The notes under the pieces: generated by a model
What the model was told of the DNA's origin: nothing
Seen by the model: the letters and a program-made list of their open reading frames with translations, nothing else
Database searches by the model: none
Assembly (NCBI GenBank): GCA_044892525.1
Contig: CM097887.1
Location: 88,824,397-88,888,396, forward strand
From: Schmidtea polychroa
Lineage: Eukaryota
Length of the DNA: 64,000 nucleotides
Direction: 5' to 3'
Shown: positions 11,348 through 43,354 of the stretch, one piece after another
How positions within the stretch are numbered: the first letter of the stretch is position 1
Layout: each line of letters starts with the position of its first letter
Translations under genes and position numbers: made by a program

Positions 11348-11423
<76 letters not shown>
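11348..11423. repeat. (AAT)n microsatellite
   Basis: Read directly from sequence. Confidence 0.95.
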
Positions 11424-11426
<3 letters not shown>

Positions 11427-14400
11427 TAATAAAATAATTTGTTCAAGAATTAACTTTTAGATCTATCAATTTCAACAATAAAAATAAATCTTTATAATTT
11501 TACGATAATAATTAAATGTTGCAATAATATTAATTTATTTTTAAATTTTCTTTCACGTAATTACTCATAAAAAATTCTTTCAAGCCAACACTAATTTATA
11601 TGATTATATCTTTCTTTTATTCGATTTTAAATTATTCAAAACTATCCAAAATATCCAAAAATGTCAAAGAAAATACTTAAAATCTGTCAAAAGATTATTT
11701 GTTTATATTTATCTTTTGGTTTCAACTTGGATCTTGTTTTTAATTCAATAATTTTTATGTAATAATATTTGTAAGACTATACACCGAAATAATATATAAG
11801 GTATTTGTTTAAATATTTGATTTTACGTTTAGTTTTTTAAATTAAAAAACTTTATGTGGCATAATACTTCTCAAAGACTATCATAGTATTTCTGACTTTA
11901 AAATAAGATAAAATTTCATGAGCTCTCACTACTCTTTCACCGAGTTAATAACGATATTTTTGCAGTTTTTATCAATTGTATCGTGTACCTTACATATATT
12001 GTTTTGATCTATAGTCTTACAAACATTTATGAAAATTATTGAAATATCTATATAAAATATCTTTCTATAGGTTTCATTTCATATTTTGCGTGATTTTCAT
12101 TCAGTCAAACATTAAGAGTTCATATTGGAAAGATGTGATTTAAAAATATAGGTGTTGTAATTATGCAACACTGCAGTTGAATAATAAATAATTATTGTAA
12201 CAATTCGTTACAAAACTGGGATAAATAATGTAAAATGTTCGCGAAATATTCATGTTTCTTTAAAATATAATGCGCCATCTCATGCCACAAATTGGAATAT
12301 TCGAGGATATGTATTTGAGGAAACATCAGTTCAGCTACAAATATGAAACCAGTTTTGTCTCACCGTAGTGCTAAATTAGCTGAAAGTGTTATCTAAACAT
12401 CAATTTCCTATTGTTCATAGCAATCAGCTATTGCAAACGACCTTATGCAACGAATTTGGTGTATTTGAATAAAAATAAAACTTAACCTTGTAAAATTCAT
12501 TTAATATGTGATAAACCCTTAGTTATTGTGATTATATTTCAGTAATCAATTAAAAATTATAATAAACTGAAAAATAAATCGGCAAAAATGAAATCAGTGA
12601 AAATATCTGTTTAATCTTTTCTAACGCATTTTTATAATGCAAAATTGTATCAAATCCTTTTTAGATTTTTGTCTAGTGAACTATTTCTTTGTAAAAAATG
12701 AAATCATAGGTCATGAAATCGTACAATAAATATTTAAAGGAATGTTTACATGTATCAATTCGATGCATAATGAATTCTATAAATACTTTGATAATAAATT
12801 ATCTGCTCTGAAAAAAAAACAGTTGTCTTAAAAATTCCATTAAATTAACGAAGGATAGAAAATTAAATTGTGAAGGAAACTGGAAGGAAATTTTAAAAAT
12901 AGCCTACTATATTTAGCTATTTTTGCAAAATACTATAATTATATTCTTTCGTTTCCTGATACAATTATATTAATCTACAAGTTATTGTGTGATGTTAACA
13001 TTTTAAGATTTATTAGAAATTTTGTTTAACATGGAAAAAATTTAAAGAAATTGCGATAATTTCTGTGGTAGTTATTTTAAAAAGTTTTAACAATTATTCA
13101 AATGAGTAAATCAACATTTTTAATTTATTTATTTTAATATAAGAAAATTAAAGAAAATGAAAAGTACGAAATTTCATTTTCAAAAAAATAAAAAATGATG
13201 ACGATAGTTATTAGTTTTACTTCAAATATATTTACGCGTTGGACCTAGGTAAATTTTCTTCCGAAATTTAATTAGAAAAAACCTTTAAGTTTGTAGTAAA
13301 TTAGAGAAATTCTTTCTAGTAAACGATGGTAATCCTGGACGAAATTTTAAATTCCAATGTAAGCTGAAGTCGTATTTTTGGATGCCAAGAGCTGTATAAA
13401 GAATTAATCTAATTATTATTTCTACGTTTATTCAGGAATTTTCTTATCAAATAAAATTAAGAAATTATGAGGGGGTTTTAGTGAACTGAATTAGCCTTAA
13501 TTTAGCTCTTATTACCATGGAAAATCTGATGAACTGAGTGTTATTCTAATGATAACAGTGATTTTACATCAGTTACAAATAAAGGGATTACTGAAATTGT
13601 AAAATAAATTTCACTTGTTTCAATAATTTTTTTGTAAACTAATGCATATTTTTGACTTTTGGGAAATTTGGGAAGTGTAATAGAAAAGCATCTTGTTATG
13701 ACATGTCTACAGCATAACAAAGAAAAATGTATTCTGAAATATTTCTTTTAGCTGTTAATTTTGCAGCTATCTCAAAATTAAATAATATTTTTATCGAATT
13801 CATAATAAAAAAACATTTTAAATAATTTCTGAAATCGAATATCTTGATACTGGAAAATATTACATACTGGGAAAAAATTTTGTTACAAAAATATTTCTAT
13901 GGATTTAAAAAAAAATTTTATATGAAAATAGTTTCTTGTCATTCATTTCTTTACATTTACATATTGATTTTTCATTAAAAAATTGAGCATGCCATGGAAT
14001 TTCAAAATTTCCTGATTACACTCTGACCCGCTGAAAATAATTTGAAACTAAAATGGCCCTTCATCCAAAGTATTTGCCCACCTATGATCTTATATCTCAA
14101 CTTGAAAACTTTAAAACTCCATTGAAAATTGCAAGTAAAGAGTTAATTACGTTGATATAAATATCTTCCAAAACAGTTTATAGTAATATCTTGGTGCAAT
14201 TTGAGTTTTGAGTCGGAATTATTTCAAAGAACTCAATTCTATCGAAAAAATACTAATTAGGTGTGTGAATTCAAGCTTTACATACTTTAGGAAAAGTAAT
14301 CAAATAGTCTGTGAAAAGATCGGTGATATGTAATTCTAATAAGTATTATTTAAATATCACAGGCCCGGTGATTCCGGTCAAGAAATTATCAAACCACATG

Positions 14401-17400: not shown

Positions 17401-17801
17401 TTAGCTGTAAAGTAAGAAAGATAACGGTACATGACGAAAGGGATAAAGTTAAAGTGGTTCAGCTCTATTACATTGAATTACTTGAATAAAGACTTGTATA
17501 AAAACTTGTAAAAATCTGAGGATCTAAAGACTGAATTATACAGCGATAAAGTAAATGAAACTTTTCTAAGAGGATGGTAAAATAGGAAAATATTCAAGAG
17601 CCGGCTATCTAACAGCAAAAAAGGAAGGCACGGAGGTCCGCGGTCTGTATGATTTTTTACAAGAAGCCCCTATGGGAAAGATTATATTGTAAAATGAGTG
17701 AGGGATAATGTAATATTAAACAATTAATGTTGTTTTAATATTATGAAAATGTCGTAAAAATAGAATTTGAAAAACGTTTTGTCTTACAAGCTATCCGGGC
17801 A

Positions 17802-18510
17802 ATGGAAATCAACAAGATCATAATTGAAAATGTTGGAAAATTCGATGGCAAAAATACAGATGTGGAAGAATGGTTCGACAAACTCGAAATTACTTTGGAA
17901 GCCAAGAATGTGAAAAATGTCATGAACGTAATGCCATTTTTACTTGAAGGTCAATCTTATGCAGTTTTAAAACAGTTAAAGAAAAGCAGCACGACAATGG
18001 ATTTTTGTATGCTGAAGAAGGAATTATTGAAAACCTTCGGTATGAGCGAGCAAGAAGCTTTTACGAAACTTTTACAGAAAAAGTTATTAATGGGTGATAA
18101 CTTGGATGTCCATGTAAATGAATTAAGGTCACTGTTGGAATGTTCAGGTGATCTACTAATCCGATTTTTTGTAAATAGCTTACCAAGTGATTTGTCAAAT
18201 CAACTAAAGATGTCAACAGCGTCAACAATGAATGAGTTAGTCGCTCAAGCAAAGAAAATCGCAAGTCATCAAATTTATGACAATGAAACGGTTGCAGTAG
18301 TAGTACCAAGATCAGATAGTGGAAGACAAGCCAATCGAAAATGCTATATATGCAATAGTGCTAATCATGTGGTAAGATAGTGTCCAGAAAGACGCAATAT
18401 CAGATGTGCAAAATGCGGTATTATGGGACATATTTCAAGGTTTTACAAGTCGGGAAAAGATCATGGGGCTAGACACAATGTGGAGTCGGGTGTGGCCCCA
18501 AAAATTGTGA
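17802..18510 (+). pseudogene. gag: gag of small Gypsy (capsid plus two CCHC-like knuckles, nonsense codon at 18378)
   Basis: KFDGKNTDVEEWFDKLE capsid start; CYICNSANHVVR*C and CAKCGIMGHISR knuckles. G GGA AAA slippery heptamer at 18452-18458 shifts -1 into the protease frame. Confidence 0.75.
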
Positions 18511-18514
18511 ATAT

Positions 18515-21088
18515 GTGAGACTCCTAAAAGTAAATGGTGATGTAAAAGCATGTTTAGTTGATTCGGGCAGCACTACCACTATAGTAAAAGGAAATCCACG
18601 AAAATCTATGACTGCGGTAGCGATGCTTGATGGTTCAATCATATATGCTGAGCGAAGTAAAGTTGATATATGGGTTGGAGATAAGTTATTTAATATTGAT
18701 TGTTTAATACACCCGAAACTAGTATCCAATTATGATGTAATTTAATAAGTGAATGCTATTAATAGGTTTGGTGGAGTACGATTGAATAAAAAAGCCATAT
18801 TCGGTTGTGAAGAAGCATCTTGTCACGTAGCGTGCTCTAGTAGTGGTATGTCAGAAATATTGAAGGAAAATTTCTCTGCGAGATTTGAAAACGAGAAATG
18901 GATTGTCAAATGGGATTGGAAGTCAGAGCCGCCAAAATATCTACCTAATAGAAATTCAAACTTTTATGATAATTTTAGTAAGGATCAGGAGACAATGCGT
19001 ATATTGAATTCTTGGATATCTAACAGCTATCTAGTTGATTACGACGAGAAAACAATGGGCAAACCGATCGGATCAGTACCTATTTATGGTACAATTCAGT
19101 TAAATAGAGCGGAAGTGCGTCCAGTATTTGACTTTAGGGGTATCAATAAATATATTGATGTATATAGTGGAAATGTAGATATCTGTTCTGAAAAATTACG
19201 ATGATGGAGATGTTTAAGTAAAGAATTTGCAATGTTAGATTTATCTGATGCATATATGCAAATACACGTGGATAAAAGCATGTGGCGATATCAATCTTGT
19301 ATGGTTAATGGGAAGAAATATGCGCTTACGAGAATGGGATTTGGATTGAATATCGCACCAACGATAATGACAGAGATTGTGAATAAAGTATTGAACAACA
19401 ATGAATCAATCAAGAATAGTACAAGTTCATACATAGACGATATATTCGTAGATGAATCTAAAGTTAAAGCAAGTAAAGTAAGTGCAGAAATGCGTAAATT
19501 TGGTTTGATATGTAAAGAAGAAGAAAAGGTCAAGGATACTCTCAGTGTAAGAGTATTAGGTATTGATGTATTTCGAAAGAATAATGAACTGGTTTAGAAA
19601 CAATGGTTGCGGCCAGCTTGCTCATATATCAAGAGGCTATCCAGTGGAAATTGGGATGATTCAATAGAAAATCATATCGTTGACAAAGTAAAATGGTTAT
19701 TAGAAAAAGTGAATGAAAGAGATCCATCGTCAGGTATTTGGAGTGTTCCCAGCAATCAGACAGGCATAATTTGGTGCGATGCAAGTTCGATCGCCATTGG
19801 AATTGTATTAGAAATGGAAGGTTCAGTGGTTGAAGATGCGTGTTGGTTGCCGAAACCTGATGGTTCAAGACACATTAATTTGGTGGAAATAGAAGCGATT
19901 GTGAAGGGTATAAATTTATGTATTAAATGGAATCTAAAGTACATCAAAATTAAATCCGATAGTAAATCAGTTGTGTGTTGGGTTAACAGCATATTATCAA
20001 GCGACAGAAAAATACATACAAAAGCAAATTCAGAGTTGTTAATACGACGAAGGCTGGAGCTTTTAAAAGATCTAGCGATTGAGTATGAACTTAAAATGGA
20101 CATTGAGTTTGTATCTACAGAAAATAACAAGGCTGATGTATTAACGAGAGTACCAGCCAACTGGATGATTATTAAAAAAGAAGTCGCAGATCTAGGCAAT
20201 CAAAAAAGCTCGAAAGATGTGTTATTAGAGATTCACAAGACCTGCCATGTAAGGAAAAATCGTATGCGATTCTTAGTATCGGAAGCGGGGCTACTAAATG
20301 TGGATAATGAGATCTCAGAAATAATGGCAAGTTGTAATCAATGCCTATCAATTGACCCAGCGCCAGTAAAGTGGGAGAAAGGTGAACTAAGCTGTGATGA
20401 AAATTGGTGCCATTTAGCAATTGATGTAGCTAAATTTGCTAAAGATAAATATTTAACAATTATTGATTGTGGACCATCGAGATATGCAATTTGAAAGAAA
20501 ATTAAGAATGTAAATGTAGAAGAGATATGTAATGCTTTAAATGAAGTGATATATGAAAGAGGAGCTCAAAGTGAAATATTATTAGATAATTACTTATCTT
20601 TTAGATCTAGAAAATTTCAAGAATTAGCAGATAAATGGAATGTTGAGTTGGTATTTAGAACAGTGAACCGTCCAGGGGGAAACGGGATCATTGAACGCAG
20701 CCATCGGACAATCAAATCGCTAGCAGCTAGGTCCTCAGGAACAATCGCAGAAGCTGTGTACTGGTTCAACAATACGCCAAACAACAATAATATTTGTCCA
20801 TCTAGAGCCATATTTAGATATAATCCAAAGCTGAATCTGCCAAGCTACAATAAAAAAGAGATAATAATCGAAGCAAAATATTCTGCTGGTGACCCAGTAT
20901 GGATAAAACCGAATTTGAATCAAAAATGCACGGAAAGATGGAAAGATGGACATATCATTAAACCATTATCAAATACAAAATTTTTAGTCAGATGTAATGG
21001 ATACGATATGCTGCGACACGTGGGCGATATTAGAAAAAGAGTTGTTAAAGATTCAGATGAATCTGGTGGAGATGTAGGAATAATGTAA
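18515..21088 (+). pseudogene. pol: pol of small Gypsy (PR-RT-RH-IN), one frame broken by several stops
   Basis: ORF pieces 18515-18745, 18749-19204, 19232-19597, 19607-20494 and 20546-21088 are all in the same frame and carry the catalytic motifs in Gypsy order. Confidence 0.85.
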
Positions 21089-22573
21089 TATTAAACAATT
21101 AATGTTGTTTTAATATTATGAAAATGTCGTAAAAATAGAATTTGAAAAAGTTTTGTCTTACAGTGAAATTTGGAAAGGGATATTTATTTAAAATCGAACA
21201 TATATCTTCTAACAATAGTCCGTGAAACTGTAAGAATGTTAGCTAATTATAGTTCATTAGAGTGACCTCACTTCATACTAGCATTTAACCATTAGATACA
21301 GTATTAAAGTTGATAAAATAACCTAACATACAATGGTTAACCGTTTTTATTCTGGTTTATACTGAAATCACCACAAAGGATATGGTTAAAGTTTGCCTGT
21401 AACCCATCAAATTTATTATGATTTATTTTTTGTTATTGTAAAATTATAATTTTTTATTATTAGAAGTTTAAATCTTATCTAGTTTTTATTTTCAAAACTA
21501 AAAATCCCGAGAATACATGTTACTGATAATACTTGGCTTCAGTAAACCAATTAGAATTTAAATAATAAATTTTTAAATACAAACACAAATTACTAAAAAC
21601 AGTAATTTAATTTAGTGATAAATTCAAATAAAAGAATTTTACTAATTGTAATGAATTAAAAGCAAAATTTGTTTTAATAAATAAGAGGAAATAGAAAAAT
21701 TACAACTTTGAATTTTATTCGGTATTTCTTACTCATTAATCTAATTATAGTAATAGTAATTTTTAATTGCTTTAATTAGATTAATATCTAATTAGTTTAA
21801 ACAAATAATATATAATTAAATGTTTTAATTGCAAAGTTAGAAAATATGAAAAATTTTGCCAGACAAAATTTGAAATTTTTAATATAAATATTTTAAGTTT
21901 CTTGAAAAACTAAATTCCTTTTTTAATATGGAAACCTTTGAGAGGTTTGATAATTCAAAAGTAATAAAGTCCAATGGAGATCATTAAAATTTGTTCAACA
22001 ACACTGGTTCGCCTGAATATTAGGCAGTTCATATTAATTACTTTAATAAAATTATCAGTTCAAAAAATAAAAAATGATTTCAAATAAATCATATAGTTGT
22101 ATCGCTTGACAAATCCTATCTGATGTTTGATTTTACCCAAGAAACCCCTAACTTAATACTATTTAGTCATTTGGTATTATTTTCATCCATGATATGTAGT
22201 TATTAAGACCCACGCGAAGATTTAAAACGTCATGACCAGGTTACTTTTTAATTTGCCATACATTGTACAAATATAAAGACCTGAGTATTTTCAAAATTCT
22301 GAAATTATTTTTATACTTGAAAACGATAAAATTTAGATAAAAAGTTAATAAAATATCTGACAATCATATGGAAATAAAAGTATCTGTGATCTACAAAGAT
22401 CTAAATTGAACTTAGTGATGAAGATTCTTAATTGAGAATGAAAGTGTAATTGTTACATTATGACTGCTGTAATAAAAATAATTCAAAATATCATCTCGCA
22501 AATATAGTGTAATTTTCAAAAAATAATGGCCAATGCAAGAAAATGAACAACAAAAAATTTAACCTTAACATTT

Positions 22574-23576
22574 TGTTGAGGATGCCTAAATAATAATTCA
22601 TGAAGAAATAAATAAAATTACCTGGGGGAAGATCGCCATGACAAACGGGACGATCTATAGAGACTCAGAAAAGAAAACGGAAGTGAAAATAAATCAAAAA
22701 TGAGAAAGAGAAAGGAAATAAAAGTTATCAAACAGAAAAATAAAATCAAGGTCAGTACTAATTAATTAGTACAAAAAGGAAAAGGAATTTTGAAATCAGG
22801 GAAAAAGGAAAACAACAATATCCTTATCTCGACAGCTTGCTGATGATAATAGAATTGATGGGAGAAGGCGGCCAAACAAGAAAGGAAAAAGGGAAAAAAC
22901 AACCTGACAGCGGTCAGAGATAAAAATGGGATAGTCGGGGAAAGCAGGAGAAGGAAAGTGGGAAAACACTTGATTATCTGGAGTGCCACAAGAGAAGCGA
23001 ACTATATAAGGGAAAACTGGTGAACATGAAATTACAACAAAAGAGAGAGACAAGGTGACGCGAAATTGGAAACGCTCTGGAAGACGAATTGAGATACGAT
23101 TTGAGATACGATTTGAGAAAATAATTATTGAAGAAAATCAGACGTCGGACGAAACGTTGTTGGACAAACGATTGTCAAGATAATTGTAAAGGAAATAATA
23201 GAGGAAAATAATTGGAGAAAAGTTGAAGAGAAAAATTAGTTGAATAATAAAACGAAAAGAAGTTATTGATTATTTGAATAAAGTTTGAAAGAAAGTCAAA
23301 GAAAACAACCAGCTCAAAATCCCAGCTTAGAAACCAATCAGTAATTTGTGATCTTTTAATCCGGTGTTATACACAAGTGCTATTCCTCACCGAGTGTTGC
23401 AATAAGCACTGTATAGTCACCCAACAGAGTGTTGAATTTATCGTCAGTGTCAAGTGAAAGTTTATTTGTGATTATCAATAAAGATTTCTATTGTCAAGTG
23501 TTATTTGTGAATTATATAAAGACACGCTTGGAGTCAGAGTAACATTAAATTTTGTCACCAACTCAATAACCCAACA
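22574..23576 (+). repeat. 5' LTR of large Gypsy element
   Basis: Matches 36401-37403; one substitution seen by eye (G22912 vs T36739). TATA-like TATATAA at 23003-23009; AATAAA at 23477-23482. Confidence 0.95.
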
Positions 23577-23581
23577 TATTT

Positions 23582-23599
23582 TGGTGAGCCCGACGTGAT
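23582..23599 (+). promoter_or_regulatory. Primer binding site complementary to tRNA-Trp 3' end
   Basis: TGGTGAGCCCGACGTGAT, 17/18 identical to TGGTGACCCCGACGTGAT (complement of the vertebrate tRNA-Trp 3' end); 5 nt after the LTR. Confidence 0.85.
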
Positions 23600-23798
23600 C
23601 AAAAGTTGGTGAAGAGATTGTGAAAAAGAAAATTGGAAAAATAAAGTGTGTAAATTGAAATTATTAGAGTGATTTTGGAAAGGTAAATTGTTTATTGTAA
23701 TAATAATTTGAGATTTAGATTTTGTGAAATTTGAAAAGAAATAATTTATTAAAGTGAACCGATATTATTTACGAAGCCAGAGTAAAAAGGAAGCTACA

Positions 23799-26597
23799 AT
23801 GAGCAGTGAAGATTTACCAGTTTCAGTTATTAAAGAAAATAATGATTTTGCCAGTTGTCAAAGATTGCCAGTAGAGCAATATGGAGGAGATCCAATTATT
23901 TTTGTTGATTTTATGAGCGATTACTATATGTATGCAACGGCTTATGGATGGTCTCAAGCAATAATGATTCAAAGATTACCCTTATATCTTAAAGGAGCTG
24001 CTAGAGAGGTTTGGCAACAAATCGACAGGAAAACAATCGGCAATGATTGGGCCAAATTAAAAGATGCATTGGCTGCTAAACTTATTGGAGGAGATATAAA
24101 GAGGTTAATGCGTCAGAAATTTTATAATAGAGTTCAAAATCCAAATGAAACAGTGAGCGAATATGCATATCATTTATCGACCCTTGCCAGCAAATCCTTT
24201 GAAGAAGATTCGAAACAACCAGGATTAGCCCAACAGATGCAGGAACTGATTCAAGATCAATTTTTGTCCGGAGTAAATAAAGAAATAAAAACGGCATTAT
24301 GTTTTGTAGAGTATGACAATTTCGACGAACTAGTTAAAAAAGCAATGAAAATCGAATTGAATCTAAAGAGCTCTAAAAATAAATCTGAGGTATTTGCAAT
24401 AATTCCAGTACAAAGAGAGAGATCAGTAACCTCAACCCAAGACAATTGGGAATCAGGAAATAGATTTCAACGATTAAAGAGCCCATCACCAAAATGGAGA
24501 AACGATAATAATATGAACAGAGCAAGCCAAAATTCACCAGGCACTGAGAGAGCTCAAGTTATTCAGTGTGATATTTGTAAGAAAATTGGCCATTATACAA
24601 ATCAATGTTGGTTTAAAAATAATTCTGAAAGAGTACCCAGGAGATTGAGTCCAGATTGGCAAAGAGATAATGGAGGAACGAATTTTCGGAGAGCAATTCC
24701 TAATGTGAAGTCAAATTTTAATGAAGTACAATGTTATCGCTGTGGTAGAAAAGGACATGTTTCTAGAAATTGTTTTTCAAGATCAAGATCACCATCAATG
24801 TCACCATCACCACAAAGAGATAATGTGAATTTAAATGGACAAATTCAATGTCATTTATGCAGAAATTACGGACATATTGCAAGATCTTGTCCCAGGAATT
24901 CCGATAAATTTCAAAAACCGATTTTGAAACGAACAATTAGATTTCAGGATGAAAACCAATCAAAGAATAATGTTGCTTATGTTCAAAAAGATAAATTTAG
25001 AGAAAAAATTGAGAACGATGTCAAACAATTGAATCAAAAATTGAATAAATTGATGGCGAAATTTGAATCAGATGATGAAACAGATTCTCATATGATGACA
25101 AGACGAAAATTGAAGACGGATCAATCAAAACTTGATGATATTACAAGAAACAGAGTTAAAACGGATATGCAAAGTGAAAAGAGTACAATACTTATTGCTA
25201 AGGTCAGGAAATTAGTAACAGAACCTGATGCGAATTCTCAGAAATTGACAGAAGTATTGATGAAGCTAACGGAAATACCGTTGAGTTTAACCAAAATTAA
25301 AACTGTTATTAAACTTTGTACTGAATGTTTTGCAGCAAGTGTGGAAAAGCGAGATGTATTTGAAAAGTATATGAAAGAATTTGGCCAAACTTTACGAAAA
25401 TTCAAATGGTTAGACCCGATATTTATTAAAACAAATACATTAAACGACACCAAATCCGAGTATCAAGTTGAAGCATACGGAAAAATACGCGAGTTGAAAA
25501 GAGAAATAATGTACAAATGTGAAGTTTGGGCAGTAGAACTTGGATTTATGGGCCGAGTGTTGGAAGACGACGAATTTTTGATAGATTGTGGATTAATCCC
25601 CGGCGTTGAAAATGAGATACAAATAGTGAGCATGATTACCAATGAAAAACCAGTCAAATATGATGTCAATAAAATTAAATTTGAATTAAATGAAGCATTG
25701 ATCAAGGGAGATACAGGTGATATTATTGATAAATTGAATAATATTTTGAATTTAGAATTTGAAGTGGAAGATAAATTGAAAATTTTAGATTGTGTCAGAC
25801 CCTATGTAAATTATGATAATGAATATAGTGAAATGATAAAAAAGCTTATTCATAAATTTGGACAAGAATTTAGAGAAAAAGGAGTTTATAATGAGCCATT
25901 TGTGATAATGTTAAAAATAAATGACCAAGAAGTGGAATGTACCAGCGAGCATTGGTGTACGAAATTGAGTACAATACGACGGAGAGCAGCAGAAATTATG
26001 GGCAGTGATGGAATAATTGTATTGAAATACAAAGGTTTTGAGTTAGATGATGATGAGTACTTATTTGATTGTGGCTGTGTACCACGAAAATTTGATGAAA
26101 ATGGATCTTTGGCGAATCAGGAAACATTTATTAATGAGTTAGTTGCGATGAAACAATTTGAATTAAAGGAGGTAGAAGAAAGCTTTAAAATGGAATTACC
26201 AAACTGGAAAAATGAGATAATGAGTAATGATGATGAGATGCACGATGAACAAGAAATGAAAAGAGATGAAATAGAAAATGAAACTGTAGAGATTATTATT
26301 AAAAATGAGATGAAGACTGAAAAAGATGAAATAGAAAATGAAGCGGAACAGATTATTGTTGAAAATGAAATGAGAACTGAAGTTCAAAATGAGGCATATA
26401 TGACCAAAATGACGATTGATAATGATATTAAAGAAAAACAATGCAGAAATTTGTATGAAATAAGATGTAAAATAATACAGAAATTTCAAGAGGAAAAAGA
26501 TCAGAAAGACTCAAAGGAAACTGAGAAAATTGTACGTGCTCTAGTAAACGAATTAATAGAGAGAATTAATAGAGAGAATAGAGAGAATGCAAGTTGA
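23799..26597 (+). CDS. gag: Gag (capsid plus three CCHC zinc knuckles) with a long C-terminal extension holding two ubiquitin-like domains
   Basis: First ATG at 23799. Capsid motifs (LPLYLKGAAREVW, RVQNPNETVSEY); knuckles CDICKKIGHYTNQC, CYRCGRKGHVSRNC, CHLCRNYGHIARSC; Ubl-like segments at about 25419-25628 and 25899-26150. Confidence 0.85.
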   Translation: MSSEDLPVSVIKENNDFASCQRLPVEQYGGDPIIFVDFMSDYYMYATAYGWSQAIMIQRLPLYLKGAAREVWQQIDRKTIGNDWAKLKDALAAKLIGGDIKRLMRQKFYNRVQNPNETVSEYAYHLSTLASKSFEEDSKQPGLAQQMQELIQDQFLSGVNKEIKTALCFVEYDNFDELVKKAMKIELNLKSSKNKSEVFAIIPVQRERSVTSTQDNWESGNRFQRLKSPSPKWRNDNNMNRASQNSPGTERAQVIQCDICKKIGHYTNQCWFKNNSERVPRRLSPDWQRDNGGTNFRRAIPNVKSNFNEVQCYRCGRKGHVSRNCFSRSRSPSMSPSPQRDNVNLNGQIQCHLCRNYGHIARSCPRNSDKFQKPILKRTIRFQDENQSKNNVAYVQKDKFREKIENDVKQLNQKLNKLMAKFESDDETDSHMMTRRKLKTDQSKLDDITRNRVKTDMQSEKSTILIAKVRKLVTEPDANSQKLTEVLMKLTEIPLSLTKIKTVIKLCTECFAASVEKRDVFEKYMKEFGQTLRKFKWLDPIFIKTNTLNDTKSEYQVEAYGKIRELKREIMYKCEVWAVELGFMGRVLEDDEFLIDCGLIPGVENEIQIVSMITNEKPVKYDVNKIKFELNEALIKGDTGDIIDKLNNILNLEFEVEDKLKILDCVRPYVNYDNEYSEMIKKLIHKFGQEFREKGVYNEPFVIMLKINDQEVECTSEHWCTKLSTIRRRAAEIMGSDGIIVLKYKGFELDDDEYLFDCGCVPRKFDENGSLANQETFINELVAMKQFELKEVEESFKMELPNWKNEIMSNDDEMHDEQEMKRDEIENETVEIIIKNEMKTEKDEIENEAEQIIVENEMRTEVQNEAYMTKMTIDNDIKEKQCRNLYEIRCKIIQKFQEEKDQKDSKETEKIVRALVNELIERINRENRENAS

Positions 26598-29025
26598 GAA
26601 ATATGTGAGGAAAATTGCAAAGAAAATTAAAAAGAGATTTTGTGTAGTGTTAAAACAAGCAAAAGAAAGTATGGAATTTTGCGATGATAATGTGATAACT
26701 GAGATGAGGACAAGGAAAATAGATAGAGATATGGTATTAACAATTATGAGTTATATTTTGTTAGAAATCGGAACCTATGATTGCTCAGAAATGGAAAAAC
26801 ATGAGGAAATAATTAAAATGGCGAGTAAAGTTTTACATAAACATGTTGGCAAATGGATAAAAGAGAATGGAGGTTGGGAAAAGCTGATTAAACAAAAAAT
26901 AAAACCAGTTGTGGAATTGAGAGAAAATTATGAAGGGGTCTTGAAACGAAACACCATGAAATTTCCATTTTTAATGTTTATGATTATGATACTATGTGCA
27001 ATTATAACTCAAACGACGTCTTTAATCGCTTACGACTGTTCTCAAACAAAAATGGGAAAGGTATATTCGATGGTAGATATGACAGAATGTCCAGATGCAC
27101 ATCCACTGAGTCTAACAGTGGAAAAGGATGTAAAATACTATGTATATCAAGAGTCTGGATTTAGACATGCCACGGTAAGAGAGTGTATTGTGAAGAGAAC
27201 AAGTTTTGTATTCTATTGTGGCAAATGGAGTCACACATCATTAATTAAAATGTATGCAATACCAAGGCCAGTTGATGTAAATCCAGAAAATTGCATGGCT
27301 GCATTCCAGACCGGAGAATTGAAAATAAGTCCCGAAATTAAATTGAAGGCTAAATTAAATCATGCAATACGAGAAACGATTATTGAAAAAGGGGTGATAA
27401 AGGCCAATGGTGATTGTGAAGGCGAACCATATAAGATGAATGGGCAAATTATTGACAAAGTTGTTGTGATGGAGGAATATTTAACAGAATTGAGAGAATT
27501 TAAAGGAGCTTTTGACGATGATACAGGCAAATTACAAACCCATCCATTTTGTAATATGAAACAGACCAGTTGTCAAACAGGAGAATCGATTTTGGTATAT
27601 GAAGTAAAGAAAAATTTGTGTAACTTGATACATTTGAAATCAATGAGTTTCAGTGAAATGAGTGGCGAACAATTGAGAAATAGACCGGAAAGTCTGAATG
27701 TGGAAGCAAAGCCGGATATGACAGTTAAAATTACGCGATTGAGAAAGAGAAAAACTCCAGTAGTTCTGATGTCAACTTTATTGGACGATGGGATGAGATT
27801 CATACGAAAACGAGTAGTGGATAAGTGCGGCCAAACGGTGTATGAGACGAATTATAAAGGGATTTATGTGTCCAAGAAAAGAGTCGAGGAAGCTCAAATT
27901 AAAATACATAGTACAGATATTAAATTGACAAATTATTTCAATAACAAAATAGATTATCTATTCCACTACAGCCAAAGCATTGTGGAAAATATTTATCGAG
28001 AAATGATATTAAACGATTGTAAATTAAACAAAGAAATATTACGAAATAGAATAGCGATGGCGGTCACAAATCCGAATTTAGTAGCACCTATGTTAATATC
28101 GGAAAACGGTGTATTTGCAAGGATATTTGGTGAAGCGTTGTATAGCTACAAATGCAATGAAATTTCCGTACAAATTACAAAACACGAACAATGCACAAAT
28201 GAATTACAAGTGAGTGTCAATGGTAAACTCAGATTTATGGAACCAATAACTCGGATATTGTTAGAGGAAGACGTAAAACCAAAGGTTTTAAAATGCAACA
28301 GATTACTCGCACCATTATATTGATTAACGTCAGATTCATGGATATCGTTACCAGATCACAAAGGAGTAAAAACTCCAGAAAAGCTAGAATTAACAAAGCT
28401 TGAGTATTTAATAAATTTCACATCATTGGATAAATTAGCACAAACCGGATTGTATTCTCAAGAAGATGTTGAGGAAGCTAGAATGAATTTGTTATTTCCA
28501 TCGAAAAAGGAACGAGTAATAACTGAAATGATTGATACTATACTACCAGGAGGTGAAGGAAAAGTAAACTATGATTATCTATTAACACCAGATCATTATA
28601 AAAAGGCAACGTATAATACGATGAAAAAGATATGGGGAAAATTTATGTTTTTAGGACAAGCGTGTGCGGGATTGATTGGAATTTATGTTATGATAGTGAT
28701 GACAAAGGTAATAATATCTCAAATATTAACTACACACCAATTATATGTTATATCTGGTTGGTCATGGAAATTGATTATTGGATGCATACCGTTCTTGGCC
28801 AGATTTCTGATTACCAAGCATCAATACAAAGAAATGGGGAAAGTAAAATCACGACTAACTAAAAGAAATATTGATTCAAGTTCGAGCAATGGAAGTGGAT
28901 ATGGGGATGATGATAATGATAAACTAAGAGTACCCCCTATGTATTATTATAAAAATAATAAAACAAAAATAAATGATATAAAGGAAAAATCTAAATCTAT
29001 GAGTTTATTACATACAGTACCATAG
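26587..29025 (+). CDS. env: ORF2: N-terminal Bcl-2-like domain, then a signal sequence and chuvirus-like class III fusion glycoprotein; one in-frame TGA at 28321-28323
   Basis: BH2-like WIKENGGWEKL; hydrophobic MKFPFLMFMIMILCAIITQTTS; LIAYDC..YSMVD..ECP, YCGKWSH, CNRLLAPLY, LAQTGLYS, and C-terminal membrane region WGKFMFLGQACAGLIG...GWSWKLI. The frame stays open after the TGA. Confidence 0.8.
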
Positions 29026-29180
29026 GCAAGTGGAACAGACACTTTCAGTCGATTATGTATTCCAAAAACCTTTATTCCAACAGCACCAATATATCCAGTG
29101 GAAAAACTAAAGGAAATGAGGCCAATTGAGAATATTGAATTAACAAATGAGCAAATTATACCGACAAGTGCAGAAATTGA

Positions 29181-29760
29181 AAGGAGAAATATGCTGGGAT
29201 TACCAGGAAATTATGCGCTAATGACAGTCGGAAACAGAGCAGACAACCAAGAATATGGGTACAAGTAAATAAACATAGAGTTGAAGCATTATTAGACTCA
29301 GGTTCGAGTAATACGATATTATCAGACGAAGTGTTGAATTCAGATGAGAAAGCACAAATGAGAAGTACAGAAGAAGTGGTACGATCAATGACAAAATCCA
29401 AACTAAATATTATTGGGCAAATTAGAGTCAAGTTCAATATTGGAAATCAGGAAATTGCTCATGATGTTCTAATAATTCAAAATTGTCCAGTGGAATGCTT
29501 AGTGGGTATGGATGTTTTAGCACAGCTAGAAGGAGTTTGTCTTGATTTGAAAACGGGAAATTTGATTATGGGAGAAACGGGGAAAGCCATTCATGAAACA
29601 GGCGACGTGTTTCTAAACCAAACATTAAGAGTTCCACCTCAAAGTGAAGTTATTTGTTATGTGAATACAATGGGAGTTCCAGATGATGAATTTATATTTC
29701 AACCAAGTGAAACATTAATCAAAAAGTATGATATCCCCATGTACGACGAACTAGTAAGTC
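29181..29760 (+). CDS. pro: Retropepsin-type aspartic protease region (no ATG upstream of the active site)
   Basis: Frame opens at 29181; PRIWVQVNKHRVEALLDSGSSNTILS and CLVGMDVL motifs. The reading frame shifts to the pol frame near 29760. Confidence 0.85.
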
Positions 29761-32718
29761 CAAGACCAATTAATTCCTGTTTATATTACCAACAATAATG
29801 ATAAAGAAATAGCATTAAGACCAAAAACGAAATTGGGAAAGTTGACAAAAATCTTAAAAATGGACAATAAAAGATTACCAAAAAATATAAAAATATACAA
29901 AGAACCTCAAGTAAACAGTAAAGATTTGACCCAAGAGAAAATACAAAAATTTATGAAATTATTGAAAAAATATCAAGACGTCTTTGCAAAACATGAATAT
30001 GATCTAGGAGTTACTCATGTAATTGAGCACGAAATTCCATTAATGGATGAAACTCTAATCAAACTACGACCATACAGAATTCCTTATGCACATCAAGAGG
30101 AAAGTGATAGACAAATAAAGGCGATGAAGGATTTCAATATCATCAGAGACAGTTTTTCACCATTTTCTTCATCTATTGTTGTTGTTAAGAAAAAAGACGG
30201 TGAAATAAGATTTTGTATCGATTATCGAAAATTGAACCAAGTTACAAGAAAGGATACATATCCAATCCCAGTTCCTCAGGAAATGTTCGACAAAATGGGA
30301 GAAGCTCAATATTTTACTGTTATTGATTTAAATAAAGGGTATAATCAATTCAAAGTTAAAGAATCAGATAAAGGAAAAACAGCATTCTCAGATGGAAAAG
30401 GTTTGTATGAATTTAATGTTTTACCATTTGGTTTGAAAGGTGCACCAGCAACATTTCAAAGAGGAATGAATTTTGTACTGAGAGATATCCCACATGCTTT
30501 AGTGTACATAGATGATATTATAATATTTTCAAGTGATTTTGAGGAGCATATGAGAGATGTGGAGACAGTATTTAAACGGCTTAGAGAAGCAAGTCTCAAA
30601 ATCAAACCATCAAAATGTGAATGGGGTAAGTCAGAGGTAGTATATGTTGGACATATTATCTCACGGAGGGGTTTACAACCAAATCCAGATAATGTTAAGA
30701 AAATCCAAGAATATCCTATTCCAAAAAATGTTGATGACGTCAGACAGTTTCTCGGGTTAGCAAGTTATTATAGAAAATTTATTAGAAACTTTGCACATAT
30801 TGCTCAACCATTAACAATGTTATTAAAGAAAACTCTTAAATTTACGTGGAATAAAGCTCAACAAGATGCTTTCGAAATTCTCAAACAAAAACTTATAATT
30901 AATCCAATATTGCGATGCCCAGATTTTACAAAGATGTTCATATTAATGACAGATGCAAGTGGTTTTGCATTAGGGGCAGTGTTGGGGCAAAAGGTAGAAG
31001 GAGAAAAAGATCATGTCATTGCATATGCTAGCCGATCACTGAAGCCCCATGAGAAAAATTATTCAACAATTGAAAAAGAAACTTTAGCTTTGGTATATGG
31101 GATAACAACATTTCGACAATATCTAGTGGGTCCGAAATTTATTGTTTATACAGATCATAATCCGTTACAATGGTTAATGAAACATCGAGATGCAGCAAGC
31201 AAATTGATAAGGTGGTCTATAGCCTTACAAGAATATGATTTTGAAATAAAATACAGAACAGGAAAATCAAACGCTAACGCAGATGCATTGTCAAGGATCT
31301 CAAATGAGGAAATTAGTGTTGACCAGGAAGAAATAAGTTTGAGAGATACAGTATTCGCAGTAATCAAAGCAGTAAACAATATGTCAGAGCTGCAACGAGA
31401 TCAGGAAATGGATGATGAACTAAAACAAATAATCAAACATACAGTGATAATGAAAAAGGACAGTGAATTAAAACAATTAATTGAGGAAAAGCATAAATAT
31501 GTAATCCACAAAGGTATATTAAAGTATATTAAAGGTGATGAATTATTAATAGCTGTCCCAACTAAGCATCGAAATACGTTATTGTTACAATATCATGATG
31601 GAGCATTGGGTGGACATTTATCAGCAAGAAAAACAATGTCACGATTAAAACTAAAGTATTTTTGGAATACAATGGACCAACATGTAAAGTATTGGTGTAA
31701 TACGTGCAAAATTTGTCTAACTCGAAAGAATACAGGAAAGAAAATAAAAGTCCCACTAAAACCAATGCCAATACCAGCCGCGCCAATGGAATTTTCAGCA
31801 ATGGATATTATCGGGCCCTTACCCGAAACTACAAATGGAAATAAATATATTATAGTATTTTGTGATTATTTAACAAAATGGCCAGAGGCGTACGCAATAC
31901 CAAATCAAAAAGCGGAAACAGTTGCTCAAATATTTGTCGAAAAGATTATATTCAGATATGGTGCTCCAAAGAAATTGTTAACAGATCAAGGAACAAATTT
32001 TCAAAGTGATTTATTTAAATCCATTACCGAATTATTTGGTATTTATAAATTAAATACATCACCATATCACCCGCAAACAGACAGGCTAGTAGAAAGATTT
32101 AATGGTACTTTAATCAATATGATCTCATCGTATGTAAATCGGAAACAAAAAGATTGGGACTTATTTATCAAACCATGTCTGTTTGCTTATCGAAATGCAG
32201 TTAACGAGAGTACGGGTGAAACACCTTTTTATTTAATGTATTTGAGACGAAACAATATGCCAATTGACCTGAAATTTCAACCCCCAACGTCTCAATACAT
32301 GGACGTTCCAAATTATAAAGTAATAATGCAGGAACGATTACAATCTGCATGGACTCGTGCGGGGTTAAAAATTAAGTATCGTCAAGAACAATATAAAGAA
32401 AACTACGACAAAAAGGCGCATGAGCACGGAATAAAAATCGGAGATTCGGTATATTTAAACAGGCCGGAGCCAGTAAAGGGCCTATCAATAAAATTACAAA
32501 GACCATTCAAGGGTCCATACACAGTATGTGATGTTACAGCAACTAATTTGAAGTTACGTCCAATGAATAACAAAAGAGCAGAAACAATTATAGTTCATGC
32601 TAATCGATGTAAGAAAGTATCCGAAATAGAGTATCAATTACGATCAAAACAAAAGAAACTTAATGATGAAAAAATTATTCAAAAAAAATTTCAAAAAAAC
32701 CCTACGCCATTGGGATAT
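29761..32718 (+). CDS. pol: Pol: reverse transcriptase, RNase H, integrase
   Basis: RFCIDYRKLN, LPFGLKGAPATFQR, YIDD (30505-30516), TDASG, YSTIEKE, TDHNPL, HDGALGGH..CNTC, MDIIGP, TDQG, VERFN, GPY motif. The frame continues into the next feature. Confidence 0.95.
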
Positions 32719-33900
32719 ATGAACAGAGTTTTATTTATAACTACAGTCTTAATAAATGTCATAGCAAATGCAAGTGGAATAACAATGAATCTACCATATG
32801 CAGTAGAAAAAGTACCCTTATTGGATAAAATTTATATATATTCAACATTTACTAGTATTGTGTGGACATATCACTGTGAAATATCAGAACAAATAGAAGT
32901 TAGTAATTTATTGAACCCTTTCGAACCATTTGTTACGTTGAATTATGAGAAAAGCATATATGTAGCTCGTCGATTGACAGCAAATTACAAATATCCTTGG
33001 ACCATTAAACAATATACGCATCAAACAAATACTACTCAAAATATTTATAACCTTATACAAATTAACATTTGGACAAATGAATGGAGAAATTTAGCTGAAA
33101 TTGAACCGATGATAAATGAAATTCACGTATATTGAAAAGCGGAAGAGCAACAGAAAGTCAGAATTGTTTTTCAAAACATTACGATTGAAACATTAAATAA
33201 AAGAAAATCTTTTGTTAAATACAAAAATTTACAAGAAAATCTCACTTACAGTCTTTCAATACATTATTACGAGAAACTCATTCATGACAATGGGACGTAT
33301 ATGAATAATCAATGGATAGAAGTTCAGAGTCAATATGAAGCAGTACACTTGGTTAACGAAACTAATCGAGTTCAAATAAAAATTGAGAACAATGAAATAA
33401 TTGTGTTACGCCAACCAGGCCTCAGACAAAGGGTAAATATTTTTGTAAATAATAAAATTCAGGTGGTGTTAGACGAATACCAACAAAGAGCAAAATTGAG
33501 TACCTTGAACTCAGTATCTAATCCGAAACCAAGAAATTTCGTGATCAAAATTCAATATTGCAAGCGAAAAGCAAACTCAGATCAATGGCAAGTCACTTTC
33601 ATTGAAAATAGACATATTCATCTTCCTCATACTCAACCCATTGGAGAAATAATAAGTGATCATAATCTAACATTAACCGTAAAACCCTCATGGTCAAAAA
33701 ACGAAAGCTTTTCACTAAACTGTAAAGAAAAATCATCTCATAACAATTGTGTCGAATTGTTATTCATATGTATCATTGTGGCAATACCAAGCGGTATCCT
33801 ACTCATCTACCTTGTTCTAATCTTGAGAAGTAATGACAATGACAATTCTATCTGCGACTATCAATATTCTGAGTCGCAGCAGTTAGAGACATGGGTGTAG
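32719..33900 (+). CDS. Predicted type I membrane glycoprotein, in frame with integrase; in-frame TGA at 33133-33135
   Basis: Signal-like MNRVLFITTVLINVIANA; at least 7 N-x-S/T sequons; FN3-like stretch IHVY*K...KYKNLQENLTYSLSI; TM LLFICIIVAIPSGILLIYLVLIL; short tail. The frame is open on both sides of the TGA. Confidence 0.65.
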
Positions 33901-34068
33901 TAAGATATGATTTCATTGCATGCTATTGATATCGTAAAGTATTTCTTTCTTTCATACCTTTTATAATTACATAAAAATGACTAATAGTGATCTTGTATTG
34001 TGATTATTCGTGATCTAAAATTAAATTATCATTCCTGTAATTTGATTGGTTAAACGATTGCACTACTG

Positions 34069-35574
34069 ATGGGAGAGTTGGGATATAAGAGTATGGTTGT
34101 TAAAAAGAAGAAAACGAAGAAAAACAAAGAATATCAAATGGAGAAAATCAGCAGACCAGCGAAAATATATTCACAGTATCTCAGAGAAAAAAGAAGCCGA
34201 ATAGAGAAGACATATATAATCGAAGAAAATCTGAGAATCCCAAATTGGGCAAGAACAGGCAATGAGAAAATGAGGATATGTCTAATGGAGATCGAATGGA
34301 GATCAAGAATGAAAATAGCCGAATTATTAGTGAGGAAAAGTGATGAGAATTGGGAGATCCACGTATTTAAAGGAATAGTGGAAATCATTAACAATGAAGG
34401 AACCATAACCGGAACAATGCCAAACAATTCATCATGGAAAATTGATAAAGAAACATGGCATAAACATATGCGAGCGGCGAATGGAACCGCGTGGTTAGTA
34501 TTAGAATGCCGCAGTAAAATGCCCACAAGTAACGCGGTAGAAAGAATCATCTCGATGGAAGAAGAAAATACCTTGCTCCCGATTACTGAAGAAATGTTGA
34601 AACACCGAAAGTCATTCCTGAGAAAATATTTAACCACTGAAGAAATCCAAAAAAATATAATATTCATGGATGCCGAATATGGAGTAAGTGAGGACAATAG
34701 AATGATCCCACTAGCGGTATGCCTCATCGAATATACCGGGAAAATAATCTATAATGCTTTGATAACTCCGAGAGAAAAAATAAAAAACTATGTTACACAG
34801 GTTCACGGCATTACTGAGAAAATGTCTAGGAACCAAGAAGACCAATATGAGAGCCAAAGGAAAGTTCAGGAACTAACAGCACGAAAAATATTGGTAGGAC
34901 ATGATCTACAAAATGAATTAAGGTATAGTGGAGTTAACCCAAATGATTTATGGGAAATTCGGGATCTAGCAGCAGCCCAAGCTCTAACGAAAAGGAAAAT
35001 CACAAAGAATGGGCAATGGTACAAATTGTCGATAATTGCTCAAGAAATATGCCAAATATCAATGCAAAAGGGAACGCACTCGGCAAGAGAAGATACGGAT
35101 GCAGTGAGACGAGTTTATCTGGCATTGGAAAGCGATTGGGAAGATGATATAAAAGTGCCAACACGGATATCTCACTCCCTACAAGAGTATAGAACTCGCC
35201 AACTAATGATGAATCAAAAAAGGGAATATAGTAAACTCAAAATCCCGAAAAAACCACAAGAGGAAAAAGCTGTGGAAATGCAAGAGATGGAAATAAATCT
35301 TCATTCCATCGAATCAATGAAAACCATCAAGAGATATAAAGTAACGATAACAATGGAAGAGGAATTAAAAATGGCGGGGAAAATGGAGCTTCGTATAAAG
35401 AGAATGGCAAAACGAAGACTCAAAGATATGGAAACTCAAACGGTAACTACGGAAACTTCGGTGGGAAATACAATTATCATCAACGGAGAAGAATGGAAGC
35501 TCAAAAAAATCTTAGCCACTTATCAAAGAGAAGATGAAAAGATAAAAATTACAAAGTTACCCGACAGAAGATGA
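34069..35574 (+). CDS. DEDDh 3'-5' exonuclease (REX4/ISG20-like) with an unknown N-terminal domain
   Basis: Exo I IFMDAEY (D at 34669), VTQVHGIT, Exo II ILVGHDLQNEL, IRDLA, Exo III QKGTHSAREDTDAVRRVY; Lys-rich N-terminus KKKKTKKNK. Intact 501-codon ORF. Confidence 0.85.
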   Translation: MGELGYKSMVVKKKKTKKNKEYQMEKISRPAKIYSQYLREKRSRIEKTYIIEENLRIPNWARTGNEKMRICLMEIEWRSRMKIAELLVRKSDENWEIHVFKGIVEIINNEGTITGTMPNNSSWKIDKETWHKHMRAANGTAWLVLECRSKMPTSNAVERIISMEEENTLLPITEEMLKHRKSFLRKYLTTEEIQKNIIFMDAEYGVSEDNRMIPLAVCLIEYTGKIIYNALITPREKIKNYVTQVHGITEKMSRNQEDQYESQRKVQELTARKILVGHDLQNELRYSGVNPNDLWEIRDLAAAQALTKRKITKNGQWYKLSIIAQEICQISMQKGTHSAREDTDAVRRVYLALESDWEDDIKVPTRISHSLQEYRTRQLMMNQKREYSKLKIPKKPQEEKAVEMQEMEINLHSIESMKTIKRYKVTITMEEELKMAGKMELRIKRMAKRRLKDMETQTVTTETSVGNTIIINGEEWKLKKILATYQREDEKIKITKLPDRR

Positions 35575-36386
35575 ATAATTGTAATAAATAAATAAAATTT
35601 ATAATTCGTAATTACTTTATTTTTTTTGTACCATAAAAATCTTTTATCAAATAAATAATAGAATAATAAAATAGCAAAGGCAAAAAAAAAAAAATTAATT
35701 AAATCATAAATATAAGTTGAAAATTTAATAATATAATATAGTAGAGTGTAATAAAAATTTCAATACTAATACAATTGTAGTAAGAACCCTACGGGAGCTA
35801 CTCAAATAAATAAAAATGAATAAATAAATATATATAATTCGGAATTAATAAAAAGGCCTTGAAGTTTCCAGATCACGAACTTCGGGATCTGAAGACTTCA
35901 TGGCAAAATTACCTAGCCGCCTGCAGCATGGCGTAACCAGCGTGCAAGGTAATTTGGAAAAGACAAGATAAATAATAAACCCTATATAGAGAGGAAGAGG
36001 CATTATTACATAATTATTATTTCAATTAATTATTATTATTGTCATTATTGATTAATTATTATTGTTATCANNNNNNNNNNNNNNNNNNNNNNNNNNNNNN
36101 NNNNNNNNNNNNNNNNNNNNNNNNNNNNNNNNNNNNNNNNNNNNNNNNNNNNNNNNNNNNNNNNNNNNNNNNNNNNNNNNNNNNNNNNNNNNNNNNNNNN
36201 NNNNNNNNNNNNATAGAGGATATTGATATGTATTAAAGTAACAGGGGGATTAATGTAATGCGCAATAAAATCAAACAACTATGGGAAGGGATAATTATTC
36301 TATTTTGGGGATTTTAAAATGAAAGAGGTAGCTAACAAAATAAATAGATTTCAAATCTTAATTTATTTCGAGGACGAAATTTTTTT

Positions 36387-36398
36387 AAAGGGGGGAGA
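36387..36398 (+). promoter_or_regulatory. Polypurine tract
   Basis: AAAGGGGGGAGA, 2 nt before the 3' LTR. Confidence 0.85.
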
Positions 36399-36400
36399 TA

Positions 36401-37403
36401 TGTTGAGGATGCCTAAATAATAATTCATGAAGAAATAAATAAAATTACCTGGGGGAAGATCGCCATGACAAACGGGACGATCTATAGAGACTCAGAAAAG
36501 AAAACGGAAGTGAAAATAAATCAAAAATGAGAAAGAGAAAGGAAATAAAAGTTATCAAACAGAAAAATAAAATCAAGGTCAGTACTAATTAATTAGTACA
36601 AAAAGGAAAAGGAATTTTGAAATCAGGGAAAAAGGAAAACAACAATATCCTTATCTCGACAGCTTGCTGATGATAATAGAATTGATGGGAGAAGGCGGCC
36701 AAACAAGAAAGGAAAAAGGGAAAAAACAACCTGACAGCTGTCAGAGATAAAAATGGGATAGTCGGGGAAAGCAGGAGAAGGAAAGTGGGAAAACACTTGA
36801 TTATCTGGAGTGCCACAAGAGAAGCGAACTATATAAGGGAAAACTGGTGAACATGAAATTACAACAAAAGAGAGAGACAAGGTGACGCGAAATTGGAAAC
36901 GCTCTGGAAGACGAATTGAGATACGATTTGAGATACGATTTGAGAAAATAATTATTGAAGAAAATCAGACGTCGGACGAAACGTTGTTGGACAAACGATT
37001 GTCAAGATAATTGTAAAGGAAATAATAGAGGAAAATAATTGGAGAAAAGTTGAAGAGAAAAATTAGTTGAATAATAAAACGAAAAGAAGTTATTGATTAT
37101 TTGAATAAAGTTTGAAAGAAAGTCAAAGAAAACAACCAGCTCAAAATCCCAGCTTAGAAACCAATCAGTAATTTGTGATCTTTTAATCCGGTGTTATACA
37201 CAAGTGCTATTCCTCACCGAGTGTTGCAATAAGCACTGTATAGTCACCCAACAGAGTGTTGAATTTATCGTCAGTGTCAAGTGAAAGTTTATTTGTGATT
37301 ATCAATAAAGATTTCTATTGTCAAGTGTTATTTGTGAATTATATAAAGACACGCTTGGAGTCAGAGTAACATTAAATTTTGTCACCAACTCAATAACCCA
37401 ACA
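36401..37403 (+). repeat. 3' LTR of large Gypsy element
   Basis: Copy of 22574-23576, followed by the ATTT TSD. Confidence 0.95.
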
Positions 37404-38808
37404 ATTTTATTAAATTAATATAATTTTTAAGGTATTATTCTTGCCAATACTAATGGGATTTTTCTTTTTAGTTTAAAATAAATAAAAATATTTTTCTTCA
37501 AACTTTTGCCAATTCAAATAAAGTCTAGAAATTATTTATTCTCAATATTCAATTTCTATTGGATAACAGATAATTATGCTAAATTTGATTTGATTTCATT
37601 AAAAATTGAGTATTTGAAAAATGATGATAACATAAATCTCTACAACTATACAAACTTACATTCATTGTGTATAAATTGTGTTCCAGAACAATTGAAAATT
37701 CCGTAAATGTATATGCATCTGTCATAGTAAAAGACATCGTATTTTTGGTGAGTCTTGTAAAGATTAAACATTTTAATTCCAATTTTAAATTTTCATTTGT
37801 GCATATATGTTCAAAATACATCGAATTGATGACAAAATATCCATGAAAATATTTACTGTTTTAAATTTTTAAAATAAACTATGAAAAAAATCAATAAATG
37901 AATTTATACCTGATTGATTGAAACGTAATGCCAAATGTAACAATATAAATAAAATGAGATTAAATAAATTGTGCTGAAATTATTTTTTTTATTTTCCACA
38001 ATTAACTTGAGCACATTTAATTAATCACAAAATTGAATAAAATTTTGATTTTCAATATGTGGATTAATTTTTTATAATTTTTATTTTTTCTTAAAGTTTA
38101 TATCAATTAAATAAAACCATTAATGGCGAACAATTAAAATTAAAAGTGAAACAATCATATTTAAGCTGTTTTGTTGAGTTATTGAATAAATTCGTCGGGA
38201 AACCACTTGAATATGACTCCACATTGTCCTTTATATTAAAACAACAAGACCCAACAAAAATAAGTTTTATTTTCAATACTGAAATCGAAAAGATTATATA
38301 GGTTTGTCATATTAGTTTGGGTTAAAATCAGGTGTTCCCGAAGAAAACAACCTCAAACTATTTAATTCTACGAATCTTATCAACACGAATTTCGAATTCG
38401 AATTCTATAATTGTTTTGACAAAATTTAATAATGTTTGTCATTGTAAAATTTGCCTAACCCTATATAAGACCAAACTGACATTCATCAATCCGATTTCAA
38501 ACTATATATAGTGATCTATATTTTGTTTCATATTTTACTCTTGTTTTCCATTCGAAATTATTAATGTCGTCATTAAGACTTAAATTGATTAGTTTATATT
38601 TTTCTAATAATTCTGCTTTGGGACCCCGTCGATTCATAATAATCACATTCGTATTGAACTTTTTTTTAATTTTTATTTAATTTTACATATCTCTATCGAA
38701 TTTTAATTACAGCGTATAGGCCGAGTAATTTCGGATTAATTTTTAATTTTATGTTAAATTGTTATGGTTCTTAGTTAATTTCATAATTTGAAATAAATTA
38801 TATATTAC

Positions 38809-43306: not shown

Positions 43307-43354
<48 letters not shown>

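Follow-up and report, generated by a model that had tools for sequence, protein, structure and literature searches.

The window analysed here is a stretch of 64,000 nucleotides from Schmidtea polychroa (assembly GCA_044892525.1, contig CM097887.1, positions 88,824,397 to 88,888,396, forward strand). It carries an LTR element whose parts run in the order Gag, ubiquitin-like, Bcl-2-like, Env, PR (protease), RT (reverse transcriptase), RNase H, IN (integrase) and second membrane protein, with a separate exonuclease ORF. The features, in window positions, are as follows.

22570-22573 (left) and 37404-37407 (right), + strand: target-site duplication ATTT, 4 bp, read from the sequence
22574-37403, + strand: whole LTR element, 14,830 bp
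22574-23576, + strand: 5' LTR, 1003 bp, TG...CA, one mismatch to the 3' LTR
23582-23599, + strand: primer-binding site of 18 nt, the complement of the tRNA-Trp(CCA) 3' end, from a pattern search of the host genome
23745-26597, + strand: Gag, with Retrotrans_gag (PF03732, E 2.3e-8), three CCHC knuckles (PF00098, E 8.5e-8), a ubiquitin-like stretch and an acidic linker
26640-26890, + strand: Bcl-2-like stretch, in frame, directly 5' of the Env leader (PF00452, E 0.0012, below the cut-off)
26956-27021, + strand: Env leader, an internal hydrophobic, predicted signal sequence (hydropathy peak in all four families; cleavage inferred)
27022-28623, + strand: Env ectodomain, Monjiviricetes_fusion family (PF24664, predicted gB-type), with an in-frame stop at 28321-28323
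28660-28812, + strand: Env membrane region by hydropathy, a strong segment (about 28660-28716) followed by a weaker one
28813-29240, + strand: Env tail and linker to the protease, with PTAP and YPx3L motifs, broken at 29023-29025 and near 29240
29238-29534, + strand: aspartic protease (PF00077, E 7.7e-9)
30184-32073, + strand: reverse transcriptase, RNase H and integrase in Ty3/gypsy order (PF00078, PF17917, PF17921, PF00665)
32719-33900, + strand: second membrane protein, with a leader, tandem domains predicted to be FN3-like, a transmembrane segment and a tail, and a stop at 33133-33135
34054-35574, + strand: separate ORF with a DEDDh 3'-5' exonuclease domain (PF00929, E 3.2e-5)
36387-36397, + strand: polypurine tract, read from the sequence; the same motif occurs in relatives
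36401-37403, + strand: 3' LTR, 1003 bp, paired with the 5' LTR

Elsewhere in the window, a decayed, unrelated 3.5-kb LTR-type element at 17701-21162 has 87-bp terminal repeats (98% identical), a gag-like ORF, an RT (E 1e-10), and RNase H-like and integrase pieces. At 43895-46206, two overlapping ORFs of 381 and 408 aa lie in a GC-rich island (44-45%) between the arms of a loose inverted repeat (43335-43476 and 46587-46741, 74%), and neither ORF had a Pfam match at E 0.01. The stretch 10508-12008 holds a near-identical 557-bp direct repeat (10708-11264 and 11452-12008) beside a run of N.

The terminal and internal characters of a Ty3/gypsy element were all found: TG..CA LTRs, target duplication, tRNA primer site and polypurine tract, together with, in Pfam, the PR-RT-RNase H-IN order, a gypsy-type RNase H and an H2C2 integrase. 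No Pao-type family appeared among the Pfam matches of the window, a gypsy-type profile being found instead. Judged by these sequence characters, the host element of Env is Ty3/gypsy (Metaviridae), not BEL/Pao. The tRNA-Trp(cca) genes behind the primer-site match were called by ARAGORN. The same genome contains a tandem array of tRNA-Trp(CCA), the family's primer tRNA, with a 284-bp period on C4 from about 55,022,400; the pattern had 821 matches genome-wide, and 99 among the 100 matches listed belong to this array. Within the Gag part, which in the window copy stops at a frame change, the ubiquitin-like stretch matched PF00240 with E 5e-4, below the cut-off. Self-comparison (E 1e-15) revealed no internal LTR or second target duplication inside the element, only the two terminal LTRs repeating, and beyond these a repeat finder showed, in the 20 largest of its 44 families, only a 60-nt tandem repeat (26260-26379) along with loose A/T-rich matches.

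An earlier note, made from the letters alone, had described a chuvirus-like class III fusogen between gag and pol. The motifs that it named, a leader from 26956, LIAYDC, a Cys-rich ectodomain, LAQTGLYS and WGKF..AGLIG..GWSW, are all in place, together with an in-frame stop at 28321-28323, and Env does lie upstream of the protease, which begins at about 29238. Homology to the chuvirus/mononegavirus glycoprotein family was likewise borne out: the Env pieces on either side of the stop matched PF24664 with E 4.3e-54 and 6.6e-28, and Env with an X at the break reached E 4.6e-89 and 299.6 bits, the cut-off being 27. The Env of a relative covers profile positions 5-632 of 653. As a match between sequences, this similarity to Monjiviricetes_fusion is far beyond chance. 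Further, 14 cysteine columns are common to six genomic copies and to P0002, a 41% identical homologue taken from a separate protein collection (one family D segment, out of frame, was left out of the linker and cysteine comparison). Homologue searches of protein collections returned only 2 and 4 proteins. With a 19-residue hydropathy window, the two segments of the membrane region scored about 2.2 and about 1.35, respectively, and no furin-type site was present in the ectodomain of the two copies scanned. Because searches of Env against PDB sequences matched no fusogen, its class III status rests on the models of others; the ESM Atlas gave no usable match. Env is thus predicted to be gB-type (class III), indirectly, through published models of close relatives and of a chuvirus glycoprotein, that of a ctenophore chuvirus, which models as class III (10.64898/2026.08.30.748148).

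The gene ends assigned earlier, 26956 and 29025, did not hold. The window frame is open from 26560, so that the Bcl-2-like stretch stands in it ahead of the Env leader, and the frame of relatives continues beyond the position matching the stop at 29023-29025. We searched the organism's own genome and scored 93 of 2,888 candidates. By hand count, 21 of the 93 scored relatives have a frame of at least 3,400 aa; in 20 it is unbroken, and the remaining one carries a stop flag. In the relative L001, gag, Bcl-2-like, Env and PR parts are all in a single frame; keeping the genomic frame of L001, the adjoining L002 holds RT, IN and the last membrane protein. Three scored siblings from the same group as the window copy, with 97-98% identical Env, are open across Env for 2,327-2,828 aa, and in a third family a frame of 3,334 aa was found at 8 of 68 scored places, one of these flagged with a stop. 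The family search added this third family and a fourth, and all four have the same domain order. Cumulatively, these findings make it very probable that Env is part of a single giant Gag-Env-Pol frame in a Ty3/gypsy GAG-ENV-POL element, predicted to be gB-type, of which the window holds a broken copy.

The damage of the window copy comprises three frame changes (26560-26597, near 29240 and 29758-29798) and three in-frame stops (28321-28323, 29023-29025 and 33133-33135). Env had been proposed to separate pol from gag translation. In relatives, however, the frame runs without interruption from gag through Env to beyond integrase, and the apparent uncoupling arises because the window copy is damaged. 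Contigs from three of the four public runs have other letters or lengths at two of the stops and at two later frame changes; the contigs of the fourth run lack coverage of these places. Between LTRs with a single mismatch, the coding part of the window copy is about 3% different from its nearest siblings; all four of the close siblings that were examined are broken as well. We consider it likely that other copies supplied, in trans, the proteins by which this broken copy was made; assembly errors remain the alternative source of six lesions beside near-identical LTRs. G-to-A hypermutation was rejected as the source of the lesions, since the 6,739 bases of the window copy aligned with one close sibling show 40 G>A and 39 C>T changes, beside 30 T>C and 27 A>G.

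The Bcl-2-like stretch of a relative aligned with PF00452 profile positions 1-100 (E 0.0075, below the cut-off), nearly all PDB matches of the Bcl-2-like part were Bcl-2-family chains, though weak (best E 0.18), and P0002 also has, by eye, a Bcl-2-like stretch before its leader. In the linker ahead of the protease, PTAP lies at 29077-29088 and YPx3L at 29092-29109 in the window, YPx3L being present in all four families and PTAP in two. The pair was absent from all 2,000 shuffles of each frame, a test of a motif chosen after looking. We take both to be late-domain-like motifs. The second membrane protein follows integrase in frame in all four families and has an all-beta ectodomain and a short tail. 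A single-sequence model was useless (pLDDT 41.5), and a model of the protein of a relative built from 10 sequences reached pLDDT 66. In Foldseek the best matches of this model were fibronectin FN3 arrays (E 1e-8), while VIA-align gave fibronectin at Z 9.1 (rmsd 9.5 over 242 residues) and single domains at Z 8.6-8.7 (rmsd 2.5-2.7 over 75-78 residues); its top row, within Z 9.1-9.3, was a bacterial Ig-like domain tied with fibronectin. ESM features agreed weakly with the FN3-like fold. Pfam fn3 matched none of the 10 sequences, the PDB profile search was blank, and no match was found among 2,961 candidates of 160-562 aa in a large protein collection. The polyprotein ends in ETWV, ETFV, ETRL and ETWV in the four families (33886-33897 in the window), and ends of this ETxV/L type are kept although the post-integrase domain is only 38-58% identical between families. 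Such ends follow a class I PDZ-binding pattern. The separate exonuclease ORF of a relative resembles ISG20L2 (E 1.1e-7) and ISG20 (E 6.2e-7); downstream of the two family C copies examined no such ORF was seen.

Comparison of the families used one copy of each of the four, with the gag rows of family D left out as out of register, and yielded distances, not a tree. Env identities between families are 69-83%; pN is 0.10-0.17, and pS, at 0.73-0.81, is saturated. The smallest distances are those between families B and D, with identities of 83% in Env, 90% in RT, 88% in IN, 58% in the post-integrase protein and 51% in the Bcl-2-like stretch. Among 12 elements examined, the LTR pairs of 10 are at least 99.6% identical, three of these being only partly in range; of the remaining two, one is 96.8% identical and one out of range. 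Since a selected Env occurs together with near-identical LTRs, Env is an old, selected part of a recently moved lineage. The family is young, abundant and retrovirus-like, and its copy in the window is broken.

An in-frame env between gag and pol of flatworm elements is a real and already published layout. Arkhipova and Yushenova (2019, PMC6431247) call the polyprotein of planarian Burro the first with env in frame between gag and pol. Like the element described here, Burro/GYPSM1 encodes a CCHC Gag, a Ubi/SUMO-like part, a BCL2-like part, Env and PR-RT-RNase H-IN in one polyprotein; the same single Gag-Ubl-BCL2-Env-Pol arrangement was found in our element, its Ubl and Bcl-2 matches being below the Pfam cut-offs. 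In contrast, Burro/GYPSM1 exceeds 30 kb and encodes 4,873-5,140 aa, compared with 14.8 kb and about 3,400 aa here. Its cargo of MATH, BIR, ankyrin and dUTPase had no Pfam match in the window element or a relative, and section 7 of PMC6431247, which deals with Burro, names neither an FN3-like protein nor an exonuclease. Chary and Hayashi (eLife 2026, PMC13524379) describe GAG-ENV-POL elements of the gB type from Platyhelminthes, Nematoda and Bryozoa; S. mediterranea contributes six. The position and homology of our Env, and the multiple copies with near-identical LTRs, are those of such gB-type errantiviruses. Smed_errantivirus_1 and _2 likewise have a Ty3/gypsy pol, the GAG-ENV-POL order, multiple copies and spans of about 14.8 kb; they are listed there without a primer-binding site, whereas our element has the 18-nt tRNA-Trp site. 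By hand count, the window Env is identical to Smed_errantivirus_1 at 172 of 251 positions and to _2 at 169 of 251 (67-69%), so the window family is a sister family and not the same one. The Env of family C (L021:7048-8649, L023:7219-8820) is identical to that of Smed_errantivirus_2 at 247 of 251 positions, also by hand count. A word search of the main text of PMC13524379 gave no match for polyprotein, Bcl, fibronectin, exonuclease or late domain. We did not find the FN3-like protein with its PDZ-type tail, the late-domain-like linker or the ISG20-like exonuclease in the papers searched, and Grohme 2018, its extended data or Repbase entries may hold them. The two accounts disagree on the affinity of env: in PMC6431247 the Burro env region is matched by HHpred to gypsy Env, which is linked there to baculovirus and paramyxovirus fusion proteins, whereas PMC13524379 places such Envs with the gB type. 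An LTR element with a chuvirus-like glycoprotein is also known in mosquitoes, as Anakin (Dezordi 2020, PMC7642597), the insect case to which the earlier note alluded; its host element is BEL/Pao and ours Ty3/gypsy. The window Env shares PF24664 with the viral glycoproteins (Chuviridae glycoprotein/herpesvirus gB) and differs from them in being embedded in a retroelement polyprotein.

For the topology, processing, budding and fusion of this polyprotein we infer the following course. One RNA would yield one polyprotein, of which Gag and the ubiquitin-like and Bcl-2-like parts would remain in the cytosol. Threaded into the ER by the internal leader, the Env ectodomain would be freed there by signal peptidase. 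After a single membrane pass the chain would again be cytosolic, so that linker, protease, RT and integrase would lie on that side. The element's own protease would separate the cytosolic parts, and the FN3-like protein would be inserted by the second leader. Neither frameshift nor splicing would be needed, and Gag, Env and Pol would arise in equal amounts. The late-domain-like linker and PDZ-type tail may promote budding at chosen membranes and the spread from cell to cell inside the animal. The second hydrophobic stretch of the Env membrane region (1.35), if it crosses the membrane, would reverse this topology.

The layout may stand as described and Env still not be infectious, acting within the animal as an assembly anchor, a receptor blocker or a cell-fusion protein. 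The infectivity of such Envs is termed unclear in PMC13524379, and the lack of a furin-type site in the two ectodomains scanned is in keeping with this. Nevertheless, we hold such a role to be rather unlikely, as 14 cysteines and 69-83% identity have been retained across saturated families, the YPx3L motif and the second surface protein fit budding and entry, and this genome contains an env 98% identical to that of errantivirus_2 of S. mediterranea. Much less probable still is that Env is a separate ORF, independently captured from a chuvirus, which uncouples pol from gag translation, as the earlier note had it. The window Env is indeed bounded by the frame change at 26560-26597 and the stop at 29023-29025, and its Pfam family is named after mononegavirus-like viruses, but every boundary is read through in relatives and contigs of three of the four public runs differ at two of the stops and two of the frame changes. 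According to PMC13524379, the GAG-ENV-POL elements are not one clade, so that the position may have arisen repeatedly among animals; here, the same layout in four families with congruent distances, and a Bcl-2-like/Env junction kept even in the 41% identical P0002, speak against a separate capture, and the position, being published, is no new event. A nested origin, with Env carried by a second element inside an ordinary gag-pol one, had also been discounted in the earlier note. We regard it as close to untenable, since no internal LTR or second target duplication was found, the in-frame joins conserved at both ends of Env across the four families refute it, and Env is under purifying selection at the depth of RT.

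Returning to Env as part of one giant Gag-Env-Pol frame, the Env feature flagged at this locus adds one family to a published group and by itself matters little. The interest of the group lies in how a membrane-threaded Gag-Env-Pol polyprotein is processed and whether gB-type retroelement Envs bring about fusion. Were the second surface protein to serve in attachment, a retroelement would show a division of labour like that of herpesviruses or paramyxoviruses, and planarians, whose bodies are stem-cell-based, would offer a tractable setting in which to watch cell-to-cell spread. We propose, tentatively and as a possibility that is open to considerable doubt, that these elements are infectious retrovirus-like agents which make a gB-type fusogen and an FN3-repeat attachment protein from one polyprotein, steer budding to junctions by a PDZ-type tail, carry an HIV-p6-like linker and captured Bcl-2-like and ISG20-like modulators, and spread between hosts. 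If this is true, near-identical Env across planarian genomes would reflect between-host spread. Provided that the host is a different species, the near-identity of the family C Env to Smed_errantivirus_2 suggests that elements of this kind were passed from one planarian to another.
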